A stretch of 64,000 nucleotides of DNA from Pseudomonadota bacterium (GTDB lineage Bacteria; Desulfobacterota; Anaeroferrophillalia; Anaeroferrophillales; Tharpellaceae). The position numbers and the translations under genes were made by a program. The stretch lies in contig JAYEGS010000244.1 in NCBI GenBank assembly GCA_034659215.1, forward strand, positions 12,659 to 76,658, read 5' to 3'. This document shows, one piece after another, positions 3,586 through 64,000 of this stretch (position 1 is its first letter; each line of letters starts with the position of its first letter). Under the pieces are notes generated by a model. It was not told the DNA's origin. It searched no databases and saw only the letters and a list, made by a program, of their open reading frames with translations.

Positions 3586-5466
3586 TCAGGCAGCCGCTGC
3601 ACTTTTCTGCAAGCGACAGGAGTTGCGGTTAAAAACTATTTTCTCAGGCGCAATCCCCTTACTGACCAGATGTTGTTTGTCATGCTTATTGTCAACAATA
3701 ATAAGATCGGCCAGAGAAGCACTCCAGTCAATAAAGCGCTCCAGAAGCCGCCCCAGATCACTCTCATGCCAGAGCCTTTGTGAAGTTTTAATAAAACTTC
3801 GTTGATAGAGAAATGTGGATTTGATATTGAGAAGATGGGCCCCCGCCAGAACTGCTATTCCCATGGAGTTGGGAATTGATACGATGACCCTTTCCGCCTG
3901 AAGCTCTTCCAGACTGCGAAAAACTTCCAGAAAAGGGGGCAGCGGCAGCTCAAAAGCTGCTCCCTTGCCAAGCTTGACATAAGAAACCGGTTTAAAGTTG
4001 ACAATATCTGGGTCATTTTCAGCCTGATTCGGGTCACAGGTCATAGTTACAACCGAATAAAATTCACCAGCAGCAGCAATGGAATCACAAGAGGTATTTA
4101 TAATCCCGTTTAGCTGAGGCCTGAGTTTGCGGCCCGCAACAACAACACTCCGGGGAGATGTCTGAGGGAGGTCAAGTTCAGTTGCCAACTCTTTTAGAAA
4201 TAGATCGTCCTTGTGCTGGGTCGAGAAAGCGGCAAGATAGGGCGCTATCGCCAAAGCCACCGGCCCCAGAGCGGTGATTGTCTGCAAGGCATCAAACAGG
4301 TTTCCATGACGAAGGTGCCTAAGAAACTGCTCGACAAAACGCCAACTCAAGTGGTGGCAGATTTTACAGGAAGCCGCAAAAGATCTCTCCTGCGCCAGCT
4401 GATCGTCGAGGGCACTATTAAGCGACCTCGTAAAGAGCTGACCAATCTCATCAACAATCACTCTTTCGATCGGGGAAAACTGACGCTTTTTTCCGGCCCA
4501 GCATATTTTATCGACAAACAGTTTGTAACGACTCGGCCAGCTTTTCGGTTTATCGTCGTTCGGTGAAAGCAGATTCTGTAAAAAAGCTCCCAGCAGATCA
4601 TTGCTGATTTTTTTGTCAACCCCGAAACGGTCTTTATAATAACTGTAGGCAATTTTATAGAAGCTATGCGCAAGTTTCAGTGAATTGCCGGAACTGCCGC
4701 CCGGAAAACAGCGACCATTCGCAATATTTATAAGGTACTCAGACAAGTTTTCACCGGCAGAAGTTTCTGTCCAAGCCGTAGCTATAAAACTTCCGCTATG
4801 GTCATCACTGCCGCCGGTAAATGTTTTCAGCCAGGGCTTATAACCAATCGGCAAAAGATCATGTTTTGCCGACAGATCGTCAATCAGTTGCGGGGTCAGA
4901 GAACTGCAGATCAGCTTAAAGAGATCAGCTGCCCGAGGATCACGACTACCGTTGATAGCTTCAAAATGGGTAAACAGGAGGAGAAGTTTTTCGAGATGTT
5001 CCCGGTCAAGCCGGTCATCAACCCGAAAAAGAGGATGGGCTACCGAGTGAATGATTCTCTCCCTATCGATGTACCCCTTAAGATCGTAAACATTTTTTCG
5101 CAGATAGCTCAACTCAGCAAACTGTTTTTCTGAAATATCATACACCAGAATATGCAGTTTAGCCGGCACTTCGGGAAAATAGGTGGTAAGTTCGCAACTT
5201 AAAAAAGTATCGGCAAGATGCGAGATTTCCAGCGCACCTTCAATTTTATTATGGTCGGTTATCGTAACATAGTCCATACCTGAAGACTTTGCCTTGCGAT
5301 ATATCTCAAGCGGCTCAACATAACTTTCCGGTGCTCCAATCCGTCTGAGAAACCATTCACTGGGGCGATTTGAATATTTGCTGTGAACGTGTAAATCGAC
5401 TCTGGTGGTCATATCTTTCTCAAAAAATTGTTTTTTCCAGGTTGGCCTGACTTCATCAACGCCCAT
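3586..5466 (-). CDS. PHP (polymerase/histidinol-phosphatase) domain-containing protein
   Basis: N-terminal DLHVHSKYS...ITDHN metal-binding histidine motifs typical of the PHP fold. The long C-terminal region is unassigned. Confidence 0.6.
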   Translation of the reverse strand: MGVDEVRPTWKKQFFEKDMTTRVDLHVHSKYSNRPSEWFLRRIGAPESYVEPLEIYRKAKSSGMDYVTITDHNKIEGALEISHLADTFLSCELTTYFPEVPAKLHILVYDISEKQFAELSYLRKNVYDLKGYIDRERIIHSVAHPLFRVDDRLDREHLEKLLLLFTHFEAINGSRDPRAADLFKLICSSLTPQLIDDLSAKHDLLPIGYKPWLKTFTGGSDDHSGSFIATAWTETSAGENLSEYLINIANGRCFPGGSSGNSLKLAHSFYKIAYSYYKDRFGVDKKISNDLLGAFLQNLLSPNDDKPKSWPSRYKLFVDKICWAGKKRQFSPIERVIVDEIGQLFTRSLNSALDDQLAQERSFAASCKICHHLSWRFVEQFLRHLRHGNLFDALQTITALGPVALAIAPYLAAFSTQHKDDLFLKELATELDLPQTSPRSVVVAGRKLRPQLNGIINTSCDSIAAAGEFYSVVTMTCDPNQAENDPDIVNFKPVSYVKLGKGAAFELPLPPFLEVFRSLEELQAERVIVSIPNSMGIAVLAGAHLLNIKSTFLYQRSFIKTSQRLWHESDLGRLLERFIDWSASLADLIIVDNKHDKQHLVSKGIAPEKIVFNRNSCRLQKSAAAA

Positions 5467-56628: not shown

Positions 56629-56859
56629 ATGAAAACTATCTCGTTGAAACTTGATGATTCTATCTTTGGTGAGACCGAAGATATTATTGGCCGGTTGAAA
56701 CAATCCCGCAACCGATATATCAATGAAGCGGTAGATTACTATAACAAAATTCAAAAACGCAAAAAACTGGAGCAGGCATTGCAAAAAGAGTCTTTGGTGG
56801 TTAAAGAAGATTCTATGTCAGTTCTAAAAGAGTTTGAGGTTTTTGAATATGAAAGTTAA
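56629..56859 (+). CDS. antitoxin (RHH/MazE-like) of the MazF-family toxin
   Basis: 76 aa, overlapping the downstream PemK/MazF gene by 26 nt. Confidence 0.5.
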   Translation: MKTISLKLDDSIFGETEDIIGRLKQSRNRYINEAVDYYNKIQKRKKLEQALQKESLVVKEDSMSVLKEFEVFEYES

Positions 56860-57196
56860 ACAATTTGAGATCTGGCTTGCCGATTTAAACCCGCAAACTG
56901 GAACTGAACCCGGTAAAACCAGACCCGTCCTGGTTGTTCAGACAAACTTGCTCAACCAGGTTTCACATCCATCATCCCTGGTTTGCCCCCTGACAACCAA
57001 CATCAAGTTGAAATCTGAAATTTTACGAGTTCATATCGGATCTGAAGGTTCCGGCCTGAAAGAGAAGAGTGACGTAATGATTGATCAGATTCGGGCGATT
57101 GATAATCAGAGGCTTACCCGGAAAATCGGCCATTTACCGGAAGGATTGATAGGTAAATTAAAAGAAAATCTGATGATTATTCTGGATTTGGATTAA
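56834..57196 (+). CDS. mazF: type II toxin, PemK/MazF family endoribonuclease
   Basis: FEIWLADLNPQTGTEPGKTRPVLVVQTN...CPLTT matches the MazF/PemK family pattern. Confidence 0.75.
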   Translation: MRFLNMKVKQFEIWLADLNPQTGTEPGKTRPVLVVQTNLLNQVSHPSSLVCPLTTNIKLKSEILRVHIGSEGSGLKEKSDVMIDQIRAIDNQRLTRKIGHLPEGLIGKLKENLMIILDLD

Positions 57197-57215
57197 AATG
57201 GCATTCAGGTTAACA

Positions 57216-57494
57216 TTACTTGCGGGCAGCGCTTGCGTTGGGTTGAGTCAATTGTGAGGTTTGCTGTAATCTATCTGCAAGCCAGAGCTTGATAATTGAT
57301 TGTCGGGGCACACCGAGTCGCCTGGCTTCTTTATCCAGAGACTGGATCATCCAGAGTGGGAAATCAACATTTACCCTTTTTTGTTCCTGTTTAGGTCTTC
57401 TGGATTTTGCGAGATCAAGTTGTTTGAGAACACTCTTTCCCTCATCAAATTTGTGGTCAAAATCTTCAGCTTTCATATATTTTAATCTCCTCAT
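57216..57494 (-). CDS. brnA: BrnA-type antitoxin
   Basis: NVDFPLWMIQSLDKEARRLGVPRQSIIKLWL resembles the BrnA C-terminus. Overlaps the brnT stop by 29 nt. Confidence 0.6.
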   Translation of the reverse strand: MRRLKYMKAEDFDHKFDEGKSVLKQLDLAKSRRPKQEQKRVNVDFPLWMIQSLDKEARRLGVPRQSIIKLWLADRLQQTSQLTQPNASAARK

Positions 57495-57840
57495 ATCTTG
57501 CCCGGCGTACAGAGATAATTCTGGTGTTTTCTCCGCGATACGTGATGATACCTGACCAGTGTTTTTCAGCTATCTTGCCAACAACTAAAAACCTCTCTTC
57601 GTCTGTTGTTCTGGCCGGGATCTCCAATAGGTAGGAATCTTCCCAGAGTGCCTGGGCCTCAATAAAATCAATTCCATGTTTCTTTTTGTTGATGTATGAT
57701 TTGGAGGGGTCGAATTCGAATTTCATAGTATAATTATTATACCTAATAGATGTATTATTGTCAATAGTTTGAAGTTGAAGAAGGGGCAGGTCTTGAAATA
57801 GTTGGCGGTTGTAAGGTTCGCGTAAAGCCAGAACTTTCAC
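57466..57840 (-). CDS. brnT: BrnT-type ribonuclease toxin (DUF497)
   Basis: FEFDPSKSYINKKKHGIDFIEAQALWED...RIISVRRA matches the BrnT family. Confidence 0.6.
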   Translation of the reverse strand: MKVLALREPYNRQLFQDLPLLQLQTIDNNTSIRYNNYTMKFEFDPSKSYINKKKHGIDFIEAQALWEDSYLLEIPARTTDEERFLVVGKIAEKHWSGIITYRGENTRIISVRRARYEEIKIYES

Positions 57841-58075: not shown

Positions 58076-58244
58076 TCAAAACTAACCGGTTTTAACTTAA
58101 CAGTGAGACGTTAACCGGGAATTTTCGATTAATTGATGATCCCCATGAACCCCATTAATTTAAAAAATAAGTTGAAAAATGGTTGGATTATTCGATAAAG
58201 AGGATTATGGTGGAAGAAATGAAATTTCAGGGATTGGGGAAGTT

Positions 58245-59183
58245 ATGTGGAGAAGTAGAAAATTTTTAGTTGTTTGCTTGGTAATAGTTGCGGTTTTGAT
58301 GCCGTTATTGGGTTGGGCCTGGGTGATTGGCGGGTTTGAGGTGCCGGCGAAGCCGGTGAAGGTGAAGCCCAATCCGCAGGCAGTTGTTGGTTCAGGTTCG
58401 GGGCGTTCAGGCGGGGGCTCGGTTCCAGCTTCGCAAAATGGTGCAGGTGCAGGCTCAAATTTTACTGATCCGGTAACCGGGATGGAGTTTATCTGGGTGC
58501 CGCAGGGCTGTTTTCAGATGGGAAGTCCGTCGGGAGAAAAGGGTCGAGATAGTGATGAAGGTCCGGTACACCGGGTTTGTCTTGATGGTTTTTGGATGGG
58601 GAAATATGAGGTAACGCAAGGTCAGTGGCAGAAGATTACGGGTAATAATCCGTCGAGGTTCAAGAAGGGTAATAACTATCCGGTGGAAAAGGTTTCCTGG
58701 AATGATTGTCAGGAGTTTATCAAAAAGCTCAATCGCCGGAGCGGTAAAAATTTCCGTCTGCCGACCGAGGCTGAATGGGAGTACGCCTGCCGGGCGGGGA
58801 CGACGACACCGTTTAGTTTCGGTTCGACGATTTCAACTGATCAGGCTAATTATGATGGCAACTACACTTATGGCCGTGGCCGCAAAGGGGTTTATCGGAA
58901 GTCGACTGTTTCGGTTGGTAGTTTTCGCCCCAACGCTTTTGGCTTGTATGATATGCATGGTAATGTCTGGGAGTGGTGCTCAGATTGGTATGATAGTGGT
59001 TATTATAAAAACAGTCCTGAGCAAAATCCGCAGGGTGCCAGTTCTGGTTCGAGCCGCGTTTTTCGCGGCGGCTGCTGGAGCAGCAGCCCGTGGTGCGTGC
59101 GTTCGGCTAATCGCGGCTGGCTCAGGCCGGGCAGTTACTTCAACATCCTTGGGTTCCGGCTGGTCTCCCCAGGACGGCGGTAG
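58245..59183 (+). CDS. DGR target (variable) protein: membrane-anchored FGE-sulfatase/C-type-lectin-fold domain protein
   Basis: TM segment, Gly/Ser-rich linker, then FGE-domain motifs (RVCLDGFWMGKYEVTQGQW, RLPTEAEWEYACRAGT, GLYDMHGNVWEWCSDWY). The C-terminal 42 codons are the VR. Confidence 0.75.
   Translation: MWRSRKFLVVCLVIVAVLMPLLGWAWVIGGFEVPAKPVKVKPNPQAVVGSGSGRSGGGSVPASQNGAGAGSNFTDPVTGMEFIWVPQGCFQMGSPSGEKGRDSDEGPVHRVCLDGFWMGKYEVTQGQWQKITGNNPSRFKKGNNYPVEKVSWNDCQEFIKKLNRRSGKNFRLPTEAEWEYACRAGTTTPFSFGSTISTDQANYDGNYTYGRGRKGVYRKSTVSVGSFRPNAFGLYDMHGNVWEWCSDWYDSGYYKNSPEQNPQGASSGSSRVFRGGCWSSSPWCVRSANRGWLRPGSYFNILGFRLVSPGRR
59056..59180 (+). other. DGR variable repeat (VR)
   Basis: 125 nt that align with 60976..61100. 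All 22 mismatches but one fall where the template copy has A. Confidence 0.8.
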
Positions 59184-59418
59184 CCGGGTTAGTAAGAAAG
59201 AGAGAAAAAGCAAGCCAGATAATGGAACGAAGCTTACAGTCAGGGGCGTGGTGGTTGGCCGAGCCGGTAGGCGGGACAACCACAACGACCCGGACAGTAA
59301 GCGGAGTGGGCAAATCAGAAAGGAAATAGTTGTTGGAGAGGTTTTTGACGAGACCGCGAAAGCGGTCGAAAATTTTGAGTTTTTTATTTTTTTGTGATGT
59401 TGGATTTAGGTATATTGT

Positions 59419-59919
59419 ATGCAATATCGACTGTTTACAATCCCCTGTTATGATGGCGAAGCTGAACTTGAAGAGCTTAATCGGTTTTTACGTTCGGTCA
59501 AGGTTCTTCAAGTTGAGCGTCAATTTTTTTCCCAAGATCGGGTCTGGCAGATGATGGTTGAGTATCAGGAGGGCGCTGATGGCGGCTCATCAGCCGTTCG
59601 TGGGGGACAGAAAAAAGTGCGGATCGATTATCGTGAGGTTTTGGAGCCGGATCAGTTTGCGCTTTTTGATCGCTTGCGGAGTTGGCGTAAAGAGCAGGCG
59701 GAAGTTGAAAAAATTCCGGCTTACGTGATTTTTACTAATGAACAGCTTGCAGCAGTTACCCGCCTGGATAAGGTTGGTTATGCCGCTCTTGAATCAATAG
59801 ATGGGATTGGTAAGGCCCGGCTGGAGAAATATGGAGCTCAAATCCTGGAAATTTGGCAAAATCAGACAGAGGGCGCGTATAATGAGGCGGTTGTAGACAA
59901 TGGTGCGGCGAGCCGGTAA
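59419..59919 (+). CDS. DGR accessory protein with C-terminal HRDC domain
   Basis: FALFDRLRSWRKEQAEVEKIPAYVIFTNEQLAAVTRLDKVGYAALESIDGIGKARLEKYGAQILEI fits the HRDC fold pattern. It lies between the target gene and the RT. Confidence 0.65.
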   Translation: MQYRLFTIPCYDGEAELEELNRFLRSVKVLQVERQFFSQDRVWQMMVEYQEGADGGSSAVRGGQKKVRIDYREVLEPDQFALFDRLRSWRKEQAEVEKIPAYVIFTNEQLAAVTRLDKVGYAALESIDGIGKARLEKYGAQILEIWQNQTEGAYNEAVVDNGAASR

Positions 59920-60916
59920 TCTCTACGAAAAAATTGCCGACCCGGATAATCTGCGTTCAGCTTATCTTAAGTCCCGGCGCGGCAAAGCGGCGCGGCCGGC
60001 GGTGCTTGATTATGCTCTCGATCTTGATAATAGTTTAAATAATCTGCGCCGTGGTTTACTTTCTTCGGCACAGTTAGAGCTGGGCGATTACCGTTATTTT
60101 ATGGTTTATGATCCCAAACCACGAATGATTTGTGCGGCCTCCTTTAATGAACGGGTTCTGCATCACGCCGTGATGAATGTTTGTGAACCGGCCTTTGAAA
60201 GTTACGCAATTTTTGATTCTTATGCCTGTCGCAAAGGTAAGGGTGGTGAACGGGCCGTAAAACGGGCGCAATATTTTTGCGGGAAATATCCCTGGTATCT
60301 AAAACTCGATATTCGTAAATATTTTGACTCGATTTCACATCAGGTTTTGCAGAAAAACCTGAGCCGGCGGTTTCGTGAAAAGCGCTTGCTCGATCTCTTT
60401 GCGGAAATCCTGGCAACCTATGAAACTTTTCCCGGTAAGGGTTTGCCGATTGGTAATTTGATCTCACAGCATCTGGCAAATTTTTATCTTGGCCGTTTAG
60501 ATCATTGGCTGCAAGAGAAGGTCGGGGTTAAGGGGTATCTTCGTTATATGGACGATTTTCTCATCTTCTCTCAAGATAAACAGGTTTTAAAGGGGTGGTG
60601 GACGCTTATTGAAACTTTTCTGGCGGCGGAACTGGGTTTGCGGGTAAAGAGTAATGGTCAGCTTAACCGCACGTCGTGTGGGATTCCTTTTCTCGGCTAT
60701 CGCATATTTGCGCAGAAGTTACGCCTTGGCTCACTTTCACGGCGGCGTTTTCAGTATAAATTCAAACTTTATGAAAAGTTCTATGAGAAAGGTGTCTGGG
60801 ATGAAACTGCATTACAAAAGCATGTTGAACCTTTGCTGGCTTTTGTGAGAAAGGCCGAAACCACGGGATTGCGATGTCGGGTGCTTGAGAATTCCGGGTT
60901 ATGTGACAATTACTGA
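59900..60916 (+). CDS. DGR-type reverse transcriptase
   Basis: Motif 4 GLPIGNLISQ (DGR-specific IGxxxSQ), motif 5 YMDDFLIF, motif 2-like RKGKGGERA, and a ~340-aa length. Confidence 0.85.
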   Translation: MVRRAGNLYEKIADPDNLRSAYLKSRRGKAARPAVLDYALDLDNSLNNLRRGLLSSAQLELGDYRYFMVYDPKPRMICAASFNERVLHHAVMNVCEPAFESYAIFDSYACRKGKGGERAVKRAQYFCGKYPWYLKLDIRKYFDSISHQVLQKNLSRRFREKRLLDLFAEILATYETFPGKGLPIGNLISQHLANFYLGRLDHWLQEKVGVKGYLRYMDDFLIFSQDKQVLKGWWTLIETFLAAELGLRVKSNGQLNRTSCGIPFLGYRIFAQKLRLGSLSRRRFQYKFKLYEKFYEKGVWDETALQKHVEPLLAFVRKAETTGLRCRVLENSGLCDNY

Positions 60917-60975: not shown

Positions 60976-61100
60976 GGTTCGAACCGCGTTAATCGCGGCG
61001 GCAGCTGGAACAACAACCCGAGGAACGTGCGATCGGCTAATCGCAACAGGAACAGGCCGGGCAATCACAACAACAACCTTGGGTTCCGGCTGGTATCCCC
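60976..61100 (+). repeat. DGR template repeat (TR)
   Basis: A non-coding, AAC-codon-rich copy of the VR. The overlapping ORF 60926..61132 is a frame artefact. Confidence 0.8.
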
Positions 61101-61343
61101 AGCCCGGCGCAAGCGGTGATGGATTTCACTAAAGCGTCGTCCCGAATAGTGTCCGGTTCCGGTAACAGGCTTACATGGTATCTTTTTTGCCGGACAAAAT
61201 TGCTTGACCCCGAAACGGGTTGGTAGCTGGAGCCGGAGCCGGAGAAGCGGTCGGCGAAGATTCGTTTCGGGGGTTTGTTGACGAAAAGAGAACTCGAGTC
61301 AGAATTCTTCCTTTGGGAAGAGAGTAAAGAGAGAGGATATAAA

Positions 61344-63236
61344 ATGCGGAGTTTACGATGGGTAGTTAGAGCCGGGGTGTTGGTTTTATTTATTCTGATT
61401 TTTGCCGGCGGTGGGGTTTTTGCCGCCGACTACTGCGATATGGCGCGGGATATTGCGGAGCGGGCGGCGAAGACCTTTAACCGGGATCAGGAAAAAGGGA
61501 TCAAGCTTTTTATCAAGGCGCATAATCTTTGCAAAAAACCGCTCTATGCCTATAATCTCGGGATCGCCTATTTTGAGTATGGGAACCCGGCTGAGGCGGA
61601 GAAGTTTCTCGCCGAGGCGGTTAAGGGTGACGGCAGTCGGGCCAAGTGGCTTAATGACTATGCCGGGGTGATTCTGTTGCGCTCCGGTGATGCGAAAAAG
61701 GCACTCCAGATGGCGGAGAAAGCCTGGCGGTTGGCAAGCGATAGCAGCGGGTTGAAACCGGCGATCGCCGAGACTCTGGCTGAGGCGCAGATGCGAACCG
61801 GTCAAGGGCTTGTCGCCTTGAAAGGGATTAGATCGGCGGCGCTGAGTGCACCTTCTGAAAAACGGCTGCAAACCGCGATGCAGAAGATTGAGAGCCGTTA
61901 TATCCAGGCGGCCCTGCAACTGGTGCGTGAGGGGAAAAAGCGTGAAGGTTTTTTAGTTTTGGAGAAAGGGGCTGATTTTAGTGCCTTAACCGCGAAAACC
62001 TACTGTCTTGCCCTGGCCCGCGATGGAGCGGGTGAGAAGGCTTTGGCGGCGGCGGCGAAATTTGCCAGGCGTTATCCGGCTGAGCTTGATCAGGTCTGGA
62101 GTGAGGTGGTCGCGGCTGAGTGCGATCGGCTTTATCGCCGTTTTCAGGCGGGCGAGCGGGCGCAGGCGATGCAGATGGCGAAAGCTTTGCACGAAAAATA
62201 TGATTTTGATAAAGATTTCAAGGTGGCCTACGACAAACTTTTTGAGGCTTATCTTGCCGATGATGTGACGATTGCGGTGGCGCGGCCGCAAACCGGCAAA
62301 GCTTATGGCCGGGCCGCGTCCGGCGAGGTTGATCTGGAGCTGGCCCTGGCCTCGGCCTTTGGTGAAAAGAGTGAGTCCGGCGGGGAAAATATCAACCTTG
62401 GGACGGCCCTGGATCAGGATAAAAATATTCGTCAGGGCAAGCTTAAACGTAAACACGGAATCGCTCTGGTGATCGGGAATCAACATTACAAAGAGCACGG
62501 TTACGGGGTTCCTGACGTTAAATATGCCGGGCGCGACGTTGCGGTTATGAAAAAATATCTGATTAAGACCATGGGCTTTAAGGAAGATAATATCATTACT
62601 GCCCACGATGCCAGTTTCAGTAAAATGCGGAGTCTTCTGGGCACGCCGGAAAATCCGAAAGGCAAACTTTACAACTATGTTAAAGCTGAAAAAGGCCGGG
62701 CCGAGGTTTTTGTATATTATGTTGGTCACGGCTCACCCTCGGCAAAAAGTGGTGAGGCCTATCTGGTGCCGGTTGAAGCCGAGGTCGATTATCTTGAGAG
62801 CAGTGCCTATCCTCTAAGTCTTTTTTACCGCAATCTTGAATTTTTAGAGGCAAAATCGGTGATGGTCGTGCTTGACGCCTGTTTCTCCGGTGATTCCGCC
62901 GGCGGCACACTTTTTAAGGGGATCAGCCCGACAGTCTTGAAAAATGTTGAGCCGGTACGTGAACTCAAGCGAAACTCTTTTGTTTTGTGCGGGGCCGGTA
63001 AAAATCAGGTTTGTGCTTGGTATAAAGAGAAAAACCACTCGCTGATGACTTACTATTTTCTTGAGGCGCTGCAAGGTCGGGCCGATAGTAACGGTGATGA
63101 CAGTCTGAGTGTTGGCGAGGTTTATGAATATGTTCAGGATAAGGTTAGCAGTAAGACTCTGCGGGACTCCACCTCCCGTGAGCAGAACCCCAAAATTTTG
63201 GGTAATCTTGACCTTGTTCTGGCAGAGTTAGAATAG
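61344..63236 (+). CDS. secreted TPR-like / caspase (peptidase C14)-domain protein
   Basis: Signal peptide MRSLRWVVRAGVLVLFILIFAGGGVFAA. The C-terminal caspase-like dyad is YYVGHGSP (His) and VLDACFSGDS (Cys). The start is moved from TTG 61275 to the ATG at 61344, which has a GAGAGAGGA RBS. Confidence 0.6.
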   Translation: MRSLRWVVRAGVLVLFILIFAGGGVFAADYCDMARDIAERAAKTFNRDQEKGIKLFIKAHNLCKKPLYAYNLGIAYFEYGNPAEAEKFLAEAVKGDGSRAKWLNDYAGVILLRSGDAKKALQMAEKAWRLASDSSGLKPAIAETLAEAQMRTGQGLVALKGIRSAALSAPSEKRLQTAMQKIESRYIQAALQLVREGKKREGFLVLEKGADFSALTAKTYCLALARDGAGEKALAAAAKFARRYPAELDQVWSEVVAAECDRLYRRFQAGERAQAMQMAKALHEKYDFDKDFKVAYDKLFEAYLADDVTIAVARPQTGKAYGRAASGEVDLELALASAFGEKSESGGENINLGTALDQDKNIRQGKLKRKHGIALVIGNQHYKEHGYGVPDVKYAGRDVAVMKKYLIKTMGFKEDNIITAHDASFSKMRSLLGTPENPKGKLYNYVKAEKGRAEVFVYYVGHGSPSAKSGEAYLVPVEAEVDYLESSAYPLSLFYRNLEFLEAKSVMVVLDACFSGDSAGGTLFKGISPTVLKNVEPVRELKRNSFVLCGAGKNQVCAWYKEKNHSLMTYYFLEALQGRADSNGDDSLSVGEVYEYVQDKVSSKTLRDSTSREQNPKILGNLDLVLAELE

Positions 63237-64000
63237 ATGGGGAATTGTTTGCAAAATCTTGTTGCAATCTTGTTTTTGGGGTGCTTGTTACTTCTTGTCG
63301 GTTGTCATCCGGCGGCGGTTGAGACGCGGAGTCTTGGTGGTTTTAGCGACAGTTATGCCGAGGTCGTGCTTAAGCTTTGTCAAAGTAGTGTGAAAAAAGG
63401 TGAGATGGTTGCGGTCAGTGCCTTTTATGATGGTGATAACGGCGATTTTACCGCTTTGGGCGATCAATGGCGCGACCGGGCCGAGGCGGCGTTGGCCGGA
63501 GGTGATATTAAAGTTCGGGCGGTACGCGATATGGGCTTGATTCTTGATAGCCTGGAGAGTGCCGATAGCGACAGAGATTTTAACGAAAGTCAAATCTGGC
63601 GTGCAAGCGGCAGTGACTATCTTTTGGTTGGGCGTTACTATCTCTATGAGGGCGGCGATGAAAAAGAGCCGGACTATCTTGAGCTCAAGATAAATCTCTT
63701 GAAAAATTGTGATCGAACCGTAGTCAAAGCGACGACCTGGCGCACTAAATTGACGCCGGGCTGGCAATCGCGGGCGGCAGTTATTCGGGGCAATATTTAC
63801 CATAAAGCGATTGAGGTGGTGGGGCCGGGGTCTGCGAGTGCGGGGCCTGAACTTAAAGTTGAGCTGGATCGCAATCCTCCTTGCTACCCCGCCGGTGCGA
63901 GAATTTCGTTAAAGATTAAAAGTGAGCCCGGCGTCTATCTCTATATTTTGAATATTGCGGCCGATAATTCAGTAACCATCAATTATCCCAATCGCTTTTT
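63237..64000 (+). CDS. lipoprotein, 5' portion (runs off window end)
   Basis: The ATG directly abuts the previous stop (TAGATGG). Lipobox LLLLVGC. An open frame of more than 760 nt continues to the window edge. Not in the ORF track because it is incomplete. Confidence 0.4.
   Translation, partial: MGNCLQNLVAILFLGCLLLLVGCHPAAVETRSLGGFSDSYAEVVLKLCQSSVKKGEMVAVSAFYDGDNGDFTALGDQWRDRAEAALAGGDIKVRAVRDMGLILDSLESADSDRDFNESQIWRASGSDYLLVGRYYLYEGGDEKEPDYLELKINLLKNCDRTVVKATTWRTKLTPGWQSRAAVIRGNIYHKAIEVVGPGSASAGPELKVELDRNPPCYPAGARISLKIKSEPGVYLYILNIAADNSVTINYPNRF

Follow-up and report, generated by a model that had tools for sequence, protein, structure and literature searches.

A TPR-caspase and a DUF4384 lipoprotein as putative exported partners of a retroelement-diversified lectin-fold protein

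The window analyzed here is a stretch of 64,000 nucleotides from a Pseudomonadota bacterium placed by GTDB in the Desulfobacterota (assembly GCA_034659215.1, contig JAYEGS010000244.1, positions 12,659 to 76,658 of the forward strand). Towards its 3' end, a diversity-generating retroelement (DGR) is followed by two genes encoding an exported caspase-like protease bearing a domain of tetratricopeptide repeats (TPR-caspase) and a lipoprotein with a DUF4384 domain. We propose that both proteins are dedicated partners of the lectin-fold protein diversified by the DGR and that the three form an exported sensor-protease module of the periplasm or envelope, a reading to which we give roughly even chances. 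That the three genes are functionally coupled has good support; their mode of action we infer. The features of the locus, with positions in the window, are as follows.

58179..59183, plus strand: DGR target of 334 aa with FGE-sulfatase/C-type-lectin fold (CLec; Pfam FGE-sulfatase, 187.6 bits)
59046..59184, plus strand: variable repeat (VR), a 139-nt direct repeat 81% identical to the template repeat, at the 3' end of the target gene
59419..59919, plus strand: DGR accessory protein with HRDC domain (Pfam HRDC, 60.2 bits)
59900..60916, plus strand: DGR reverse transcriptase (RT; Pfam RVT_1, 72.9 bits; PADLOC RT, 136.6 bits)
60976..61114, plus strand: template repeat (TR), downstream of the RT gene
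61344..63236, plus strand: exported TPR-caspase gene, 630 aa (Peptidase_C14 profile, AlphaFold model, homologue alignment)
61344..61424, plus strand: predicted caspase signal peptide, residues 1-27 (sequence layout)
61431..62258, plus strand: TPR superhelix, residues ~30-305, with invariant Cys31 and Cys63 (family profile, AlphaFold2 model)
Residues ~312-355 of the caspase, plus strand: disordered linker (AlphaFold2 model)
62457..63230, plus strand: Peptidase_C14 domain, residues 372-629 as an alpha/beta domain in the model, 372-618 in Pfam
62727..62729 and 62880..62882, plus strand: residues at the catalytic positions, His462 (CAC) and Cys513 (TGT, in Asp511-Ala-Cys513), by alignment
63081..63119, plus strand: EF-hand/dockerin-like loop ADSNGDDSLSVGE, residues 580-592, in the C-terminal part of the caspase domain (family consensus ADxNxDKxITxGE)
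63237..64000, plus strand: DUF4384 lipoprotein gene, leaving the window; the full 349 aa are encoded on Logan contig L001 at 4293..5342 (lipobox, DUF4384 profile)
63288..63803, minus strand: shadow open reading frame (ORF), antisense to the lipoprotein gene and not a gene (codon log-odds, conservation)

The DGR upstream of the caspase gene is genuine: it has an RT, adenine-specific mismatches between TR and VR, a VR at the 3' end of its target and an accessory gene. TR and VR differ by 26 mismatches, 85% of which lie at TR adenines, and the HRDC gene sits between target and RT both here and in ~20 homologous loci. The target begins with a signal sequence; its predicted mature N-terminus bears the segment WVIGGFEVPAK, and a linker rich in Gly, Ser and Lys leads on to the CLec domain. 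Its signal peptide is of type I and it has neither a lipobox nor another anchor, so that the label 'surface protein' is unproven. Within the window, the TR has a single VR partner, and neither the VR nor the FGE, caspase or DUF4384 gene has another copy. A scan for promoters and terminators was uninformative apart from a weak promoter-like site (61278..61305) between TR and caspase gene.

The 630-aa caspase product is called identically on L001, an independent contig, and on the NCBI contig (78 kb) of the metagenome-assembled genome (MAG), which lists it as 'caspase family protein [Pseudomonadota bacterium]'. An AGGA-type ribosome-binding site precedes its ATG by 7-8 nt. The alternative start TTG 61275 (653 aa) was rejected, as neither gene caller picks it and it would place an acidic extension before the signal peptide. 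The N-terminus, MRSLRWVVRAGVLVLFILIFAGGGVFA followed by ADY, contains an n-region of basic character, then a hydrophobic core and the cleavage motif V-F-A, which is the layout of a Sec signal peptide and is kept in all 13 full-length homologues (37-86% identity). Cys31 and Cys63 of the following TPR domain are invariant in these homologues and align as a pair. Single-sequence Pfam matches to TPR families (residues 67-182) score under their cut-offs; the family profile matches consensus-TPR structures with E=1e-32 in a PDB profile search. In the AlphaFold2 model (mean pLDDT 81.7), residues 30-305 form 16 helices arranged in hairpins, and Foldseek matches this part to CTPR, OGT, SPINDLY (SPY) and PilF. 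This TPR N-domain is rare, with ~45 clusters (50% identity) at E<=1e-10 among 1.84 billion representatives, mostly ~610-aa proteins of the same layout; the caspase-FGE-DUF4384 trio at large is much commoner. A third homologue search with the family profile yielded nothing beyond the first.

The C-terminal domain matches Pfam Peptidase_C14 (PF00656) at residues 372-618 with 60.4 bits against a cut-off of 21.4 (E=2.7e-16). With E-values of 1e-7 to 1e-6, Foldseek relates it to the paracaspase MALT1 and to the Arabidopsis metacaspases AtMC9 and AtMC4. As designed TPR proteins swamped the PDB search with the full-length profile, the search was redone with the caspase domain alone. In a profile of 19 caspase domains, YYVGHG aligns with VHYSGHG of metacaspase-4 and YYAGHG of MALT1, and VLDACFSG with ISDSCHSG and LLDMC, respectively. 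His462 and Cys513, which are invariant in the homologue alignments (n=13 and n=19), therefore occupy the catalytic positions. An earlier note, made from the sequence alone, had proposed a signal peptide, a TPR-like region and a C14-type His/Cys dyad, and profile, model and alignment bear this out; it had also asked for a domain search covering C14 and CHAT, and C14 scores above its cut-off while no CHAT family is among the Pfam matches at E<=0.01. Membership in the CHAT or TPR-CHAT (Csx29-like) proteases was rejected on that basis. An EACC1-type defence caspase (NCBIfam NF047832) was rejected as well, since the protein scores 70.8 bits against a cut-off of 140 and has no EACC1 partner gene. 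Asp511, two residues before Cys513, aligns with the acidic S1 Asp of the Arg/Lys-specific AtMC4 and MALT1, from which we infer a probable preference for basic (Arg/Lys) P1 residues. The conserved loop ADxNxDKxITxGE gives weak EF-hand and dockerin matches in one homologue, and the window's version, ADSNGDDSLSVGE, is a candidate site that may bind Ca2+ as in Ca2+-dependent metacaspases.

The caspase stop codon (TAG 63234..63236) directly abuts the ATG (63237) of the lipoprotein gene. Logan calls this start (349 aa), and NCBI calls TTG 63249, giving the 345-aa form P0024, which is 4 residues shorter at its N-terminus; the lipobox LLLLVGC is identical from either start. Its Cys23 (63303..63305) completes the lipoprotein motif [LVI][ASTVI][GAS]C, from which acylation is predicted, and most homologues with an intact N-terminus keep an equivalent L-x-[AG]-C. 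The full-length protein on L001 matches Pfam DUF4384 (PF14326) with 31.6 bits against a cut-off of 27; its in-window part alone stays under the cut-off with 23.7 bits. A precomputed PF14326 match exists for 21 of the 23 homologues. The protein joins an alpha/beta N-domain resembling LpoB, PelC and CsgG to a DUF4384 beta-sandwich, and two cysteines are invariant in the family (212 and 344 of P0024, corresponding to 216 and 348 of the 349-aa protein). It has no NCBIfam or PADLOC match. The earlier note had preferred this plus-strand frame to the antisense ORF at 63288..63803, and rightly so: the codon log-odds per codon are 0.04 for the minus-strand ORF versus 0.35 for the plus frame, and a comparable antisense ORF occurs in only 11 of 50 homologous lipoprotein genes.

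If the three genes belong together, their neighbourhood should be shared by related loci. Scanning one genome per species and the JGI metagenomes with two caspase motifs gave 157 further loci, which were annotated through phmmer searches that started from the proteins of the window itself; deduplication left 144 caspase ORFs in 133 loci. Carriers belong to Desulfobacterota/Thermodesulfobacteriota, with Desulfobotulus alkaliphilus ASO4-4 and delta proteobacterium NaphS2 as cultured members, and to Ca. Tharpella, Nitrospirota, Methylococcales, Sedimenticolaceae, Gemmatimonadota and Elusimicrobiota. Of the window-type caspases, 13 are flanked by 4 kb or more on either side; each of these has an FGE gene no farther than 5 kb away, and 7 also have a DUF4384 homologue. 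Across the 133 loci, FGE genes are about 23 times as dense close to the caspase (within 1 kb, 2.09 per 10 kb) as at 6-10 kb (0.09 per 10 kb); over the same distances DUF4384 and RT densities fall from 0.94 and 0.64 per 10 kb to 0. Nearly all of these genes share the strand of the caspase (FGE 98/101, DUF4384 38/38, RT 27/27). Their order varies, with FGE upstream in 64 cases and downstream in 37, and DUF4384 upstream in 17 and downstream in 21; the DUF4384-caspase gap is at most 150 nt in 18 of 38. Single-linkage clustering merges caspase and FGE into one cluster via unlabelled proteins; no ORF matches both queries. In more than 25 distinct loci, adenine-biased TR-VR pairs have the FGE gene beside the caspase as their target. 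At L002 three VRs depend on one TR. One of these VRs belongs to the FGE gene immediately upstream of a TPR-caspase located 6 kb away from the RT, and therefore the caspase travels with the target and not with the retroelement machinery; many loci have an FGE-caspase pair with no RT within 10 kb. The contig of the 86% ortholog shows the module ending after the lipoprotein. Their common direction, close packing and variable order, together with their co-conservation in several phyla, make a functional partnership probable. The neighbours are thus shared around related loci, and the suggestion of the earlier note that the pair partners the diversified FGE-fold protein gains support from FGE genes, often verified DGR targets, and DUF4384 neighbours in many phyla.

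Individual loci show how the cassette varies. L002 and L003 (45% identity) read FGE, TPR-caspase, HipA pair, FGE, HRDC, RT, FGE, transposase, TPR-caspase and a secreted 353-aa protein, and L005 (40% identity) reads DUF4384, FGE, TPR-caspase. The 353-aa protein belongs to D353, a recurrent secreted protein of ~350 aa with the N-terminus VRIVVLPFYAEEGVDA..., which always lies downstream of window-type TPR-caspases; at L002 a further ~640-aa gene follows it. D353 has no Pfam match, and another neighbour protein, D364, is an LPP20 lipoprotein; direct BLAST found no homology between the window lipoprotein and either. D353 genes lie at the following positions.

L002 15673-16731
L005 10634-11725
L014 3578-4720
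L017 6360-7409
L031 14386-15483
L090 10285-11343

At L023 6626-13113 (Desulfobotulus alkaliphilus ASO4-4, NZ_VLLC01000010.1), FGE target, HRDC protein, an Avd-like 111-aa protein, RT, TR and TPR-caspase are found together; this cassette has both HRDC and Avd-type accessory genes, and an LPP20-type lipoprotein replaces DUF4384. In L168 1-6474 (Logan SRR32452089_582541), a partial FGE gene is followed, in this order, by genes for a TPR-caspase of 469 aa, a sigma factor of ECF type, a protein of 204 aa whose HxxxCxxC motif resembles that of anti-sigma factors, a transmembrane protein of 383 aa and a DUF4384 protein. By analogy, this order connects the trio with control by sigma and anti-sigma factors and is reminiscent of Csx29-Csx30-RpoE. 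TPR-caspases of shorter length (420-500 aa) stand before a secreted MBL-fold (Lactamase_B_2) protein, both with export signals. These pairs match described caspase-MBL protease-effector modules of cytoplasmic defence and differ from them by the export signals on both proteins. They are located as follows.

L009 1570-2778
L032 12168-13271
L034 11411-12514 (delta proteobacterium NaphS2)
L035 11394-12347
L104 2732-3865

Export is a common property of the partners. A hydrophobic N-terminal segment is present in 93% of unique FGE proteins, 91% of TPR-caspases, 86% of other caspases, 94% of DUF4384-type proteins and 100% of D353 proteins, as opposed to 0% of RT and HRDC proteins. Together with the invariant Cys pairs, this places caspase, FGE and DUF4384 partners outside the cytoplasm. 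FGE proteins beside TPR-caspases carry a short motif directly after the A-x-[AGS] site, followed by a low-complexity linker. The motif reads WVIGGFEVPAK in the window and, for example, WLIGDFQIPAK, GFVPGFELxGK, YVPDDLDF or FVEKFEPVW elsewhere (consensus Phi-V/I-P-x-F-E), and in 24 of 28 such proteins it coincides with the site where signal peptidase is predicted to cut. FGE genes with the short motif include:

Window, 58179..58330
L002, L010, L011, L014, L016, L019, L028, L090 and others

FGE proteins beside other caspases begin instead with a folded beta-domain (AAEVKNxxxxQxGNRxxFxYDL), and those caspases carry CARDB instead of TPR. Short-motif FGE proteins occur 16 times with TPR-caspases versus 0 times with CARDB-caspases, and beta-domain FGE proteins 0 versus 41 times; the type of caspase N-domain thus appears to co-vary with the N-terminal module of the FGE protein, which is suggestive and not statistical proof. 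Candidate roles of the short motif are a TPR docking peptide, a protease site or a sorting signal. TPR domains bind short linear peptides, so that docking of the motif on the TPR domain is the simplest reading.

In the proposed module, removal of the signal peptide would expose the conserved N-terminal peptide of the variable protein (WVIGGFEVPAK in the window). The TPR superhelix of the caspase would bind this peptide and thereby tether binder to protease via flexible linkers, and the hypervariable C-terminal lectin face would bind a ligand within the envelope. The caspase, presumably specific for Arg/Lys and probably dependent on Ca2+, would then cleave a substrate. Candidates are the captured ligand, the DUF4384 lipoprotein, presumed to sit in the outer membrane and to act as a latent effector or to relay a signal, and the variable protein's own Lys-rich linker. 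One precedent is provided by caspase-like proteases whose site-specific cuts switch on neighbouring latent effectors (PMC12642450). A further one comes from DUF4384, which is 'often fused to protease domains' and is the C-terminal domain in some Csx30, the substrate of the TPR-CHAT protease Csx29 (bioRxiv 10.1101/2022.08.17.504292). As a third we take the ECF sigma/anti-sigma pair between TPR-caspase and DUF4384 gene at L168. The module might thus be an extracytoplasmic, NTPase-free counterpart of cytoplasmic FGS/CLec-caspase conflict systems. More speculatively, and in our view with the odds clearly against it, it would serve NTPase-independent surveillance outside the cytoplasm, in which periplasmic lectin receptors rewritten by a retroelement and docked on a TPR-caspase direct cleavage of a foreign envelope-penetrating molecule or of a DUF4384 effector or relay. 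The intruders would be a phage tail or needle protein, a bacteriocin or a predator enzyme, DUF4384, D353, LPP20, MBL-fold and ECF sigma/anti-sigma proteins would be interchangeable effectors, and the whole would correspond, in bacteria, to a protease cascade directed by antibodies and operating outside the cytoplasm.

The elements of such a module have been described in other combinations. Fusions of metacaspase and FGE-sulfatase as well as TPR-metacaspases were catalogued in 2012 (Asplund-Samuelsson, PMC3501461); in that survey TPR is among the commonest accessory domains and FGE-sulfatase is the fifth commonest fused domain, taken as a sulfatase-modifying enzyme rather than a binding domain subject to diversification. 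DUF4384 likewise figures among the known accessory domains of metacaspase/orthocaspase families, for which N-terminal transmembrane or signal segments have also been noted (PMC3501461; PMC7475262). The window protein shares with these C14 peptidases the caspase-haemoglobinase fold, the His/Cys dyad and the Asp at -2 of Cys. It differs in that FGE-sulfatase and DUF4384 are separate, co-encoded exported proteins and that the FGE partner has been verified as the target of a DGR. Intracellular, NTPase-regulated conflict systems have been described in which FGS/CLec domains diversified by DGRs are linked or fused to caspase effectors (Kaur et al., 2020, PMC7159879; Kaur et al., 2021, PMC8195603), cyanobacterial variable proteins can contain an orthocaspase (Vallota-Eastman, 2020, PMC7517822), and caspase-like genes adjoin clade-5A DGRs (Dore et al., 2024, PMC10907252). 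The statement of the earlier note that caspase homologues next to a DGR cassette are not a described pairing is hence wrong in this general form (PMC3501461; PMC7159879; PMC8195603; PMC7517822; PMC10907252; PMC12642450). Links between caspases and FGE or DGRs are already published, and what differs here is the exported, split, NTPase-free form with a DUF4384 lipoprotein; in the searchable literature we found no description of such a trio, nor of DUF4384 together with DGRs.

The conflict systems, among them EACC1-caspase modules (PMC12642450), share with the module a proposed DGR-diversified lectin-fold sensor, a caspase effector, adaptor modules and a neighbour protein as substrate or effector. 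Their regulators or fusion partners are STAND, MoxR-vWA or GTPase modules along with adaptors of the EAD, Trypco or EACC1 type, and they are overrepresented in multicellular cyanobacteria and actinobacteria, whereas the module is predicted to be Sec-exported, is split over several polypeptides, lacks NTPase and EAD, has TPR or CARDB N-domains and a DUF4384 lipoprotein, and occurs mainly in anaerobic Desulfobacterota-type MAGs. No MoxR AAA+, vWA, STAND NTPase or EAD/Trypco family was found in the annotated neighbourhoods or recurrent neighbour clusters of the 133 loci, and an NTPase-regulated ternary (VMAP/MoxR-vWA) or STAND-FGS system was rejected on this ground. Craspase (type III-E CRISPR; Csx29/Csx30/RpoE) likewise joins a TPR array to a caspase-fold protease, there activated by a programmable recognition module (bioRxiv 10.1101/2022.08.17.504292); one group of Csx30 C-terminal domains is DUF4384, and L168 adds a sigma/anti-sigma pair here. 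Craspase differs in being a CHAT and not a C14 protease, in being cytoplasmic and in recognition by RNA-guided Cas7-11 rather than by a retroelement-diversified protein. Legionella LdtA and Treponema TvpA are also exported CLec-fold variable proteins of cellular DGRs with the VR at the extreme C-terminus; they are themselves lipoproteins with no known dedicated protease (as cited in PMC10907252), in contrast to the type-I signal peptide and separate DUF4384 lipoprotein here.

Several explanations compete with the sensor-protease module. The caspase might be a maturation or anchoring enzyme that recognizes the N-terminal motif and cuts the Lys-rich linker of the variable protein, resulting in release of the lectin domain or in sortase-like transfer to an acceptor in the envelope, for instance the DUF4384 lipoprotein. 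Further members of clan CD, such as PorU of type IX secretion, GPI8 and legumain, work in this manner. Neighbourhood conservation and matched N-terminal modules fit this explanation as they fit the sensor-protease module. A Lys or Arg 8-14 residues past the motif start in most short-motif FGE proteins agrees with the putative basic P1 preference, a single caspase gene often accompanies several FGE paralogues of the same motif (L028, L090, L002), and the lipoprotein N-domain shares its fold with the outer-membrane-associated LpoB, PelC and CsgG. However, known sortase-like clan-CD enzymes use C-terminal sorting signals, whereas the C-terminus here is the VR, which ends at the stop codon; targets of the YVPDDLDF class have no nearby basic residue, and no acceptor chemistry is evident. 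In addition, the characterized envelope DGR targets LdtA and TvpA are ordinary lipoproteins and manage without a dedicated protease (PMC10907252). On balance we consider a maturation or anchoring role rather unlikely. A lower probability still goes to quality control, in which the TPR domain grips the constant N-terminal peptide and the caspase removes misfolded or self-reactive variants arising from adenine mutagenesis. This would account for a constant docking motif on a hypervariable protein and for strict co-occurrence with the DGR target rather than the RT, but it is hard to reconcile with the many FGE-caspase pairs lacking an RT within 10 kb. General periplasmic proteases already fill that job, the DUF4384, D353 and MBL partners would be left without a role, and a site-specific Arg/Lys caspase fold would make a poor general degrader.

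The caspase-lipoprotein pair might also be an independent envelope module that came to lie beside the DGR by chance or shared mobility, as the earlier note had considered. The 230-nt gap between TR and caspase gene with its weak promoter-like site, transposase genes (RAYT, IS21, Tn3) in several loci and a distant caspase that lacks an FGE association would be in line with this. We nevertheless hold it to be very improbable: FGE genes are enriched close to the caspase, nearly all neighbours point the same way, adjacency persists while the order is shuffled, the N-terminal modules match, and the loci are spread over Desulfobacterota, Nitrospirota, Gammaproteobacteria, Gemmatimonadota and Elusimicrobiota; it failed the neighbourhood test, in which the loci were seeded from caspases. 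The observation made in the earlier note is thus confirmed and its interpretation partly supported.

Other points weigh against the sensor-protease module itself. Arg/Lys specificity and Ca2+ binding would each follow from a single-motif analogy, and the direction of proteolysis is a guess. The TPR-caspase stays under the NCBIfam cut-off for EACC1 caspases, and PADLOC gives a weak generic caspase match only. Owing to the two-motif retrieval, the locus statistics describe one caspase subfamily, and the loci are phylogenetically related; for the same reason the Fisher p-value and the 16/0 versus 0/41 split overstate independence, and the motif classes were defined post hoc. DUF4384 is missing from about half of the well-flanked loci, where D353, LPP20 lipoproteins or MBL-fold proteins sometimes substitute, and it may be an interchangeable accessory instead of a core part. 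Finally, a more distant caspase (40% identity) on a Chondrinema plasmid has no FGE neighbour.

Further observations concern the surroundings of the cassette. Directly upstream of a TPR-caspase, L017 608-2935 encodes a 776-aa exported caspase with AMIN, secretin-N0/STN-like and CARDB domains, and tandem caspases with differing N-domains also occur in L002, L031, L036 and L096. A RAYT/IS200-like Y1 transposase gene lies inside the FGE-caspase cassette of ten loci, either between DGR components or between DUF4384 and FGE:

L002 12872-13561
L016 3094-3672
L034 8268-8798
L042 7502-8035
L047, L057, L079, L084, L092 and L131

In the window, the genes upstream of the DGR are toxin-antitoxin pairs and housekeeping genes. 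Two toxin-antitoxin-like pairs, named by eye from translations, lie between serC and the DGR target (56629..57840): a small antitoxin-like ORF with a MazF/PemK-like ORF on the plus strand (56629..57196) and a BrnA/BrnT-like pair on the minus strand (57216..57840). This arrangement suggests an accessory-gene islet; no tRNA was found near the DGR/caspase locus. A phage-borne DGR was rejected, as tblastn of the caspase gave no match in 50,697 phage records. A plasmid module was rejected too: there were three weak matches, to the caspase domain only, and the best of them has no FGE or DUF4384 neighbour.

To our knowledge, almost no cellular DGR target has a known function. If the proposed module exists, a conserved exported protease and a lipoprotein partner would provide a testable biochemical hypothesis for the commonest class of cellular DGR targets, short proteins consisting of signal peptide and CLec domain, and the trio points to a role of DUF4384 as a protease partner. 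Experiments are possible in the cultured carriers Desulfobotulus alkaliphilus ASO4-4 and NaphS2. The logic of a lectin sensor combined with a caspase effector, so far a matter of cytoplasmic, NTPase-gated immunity, would then reach the cell envelope.

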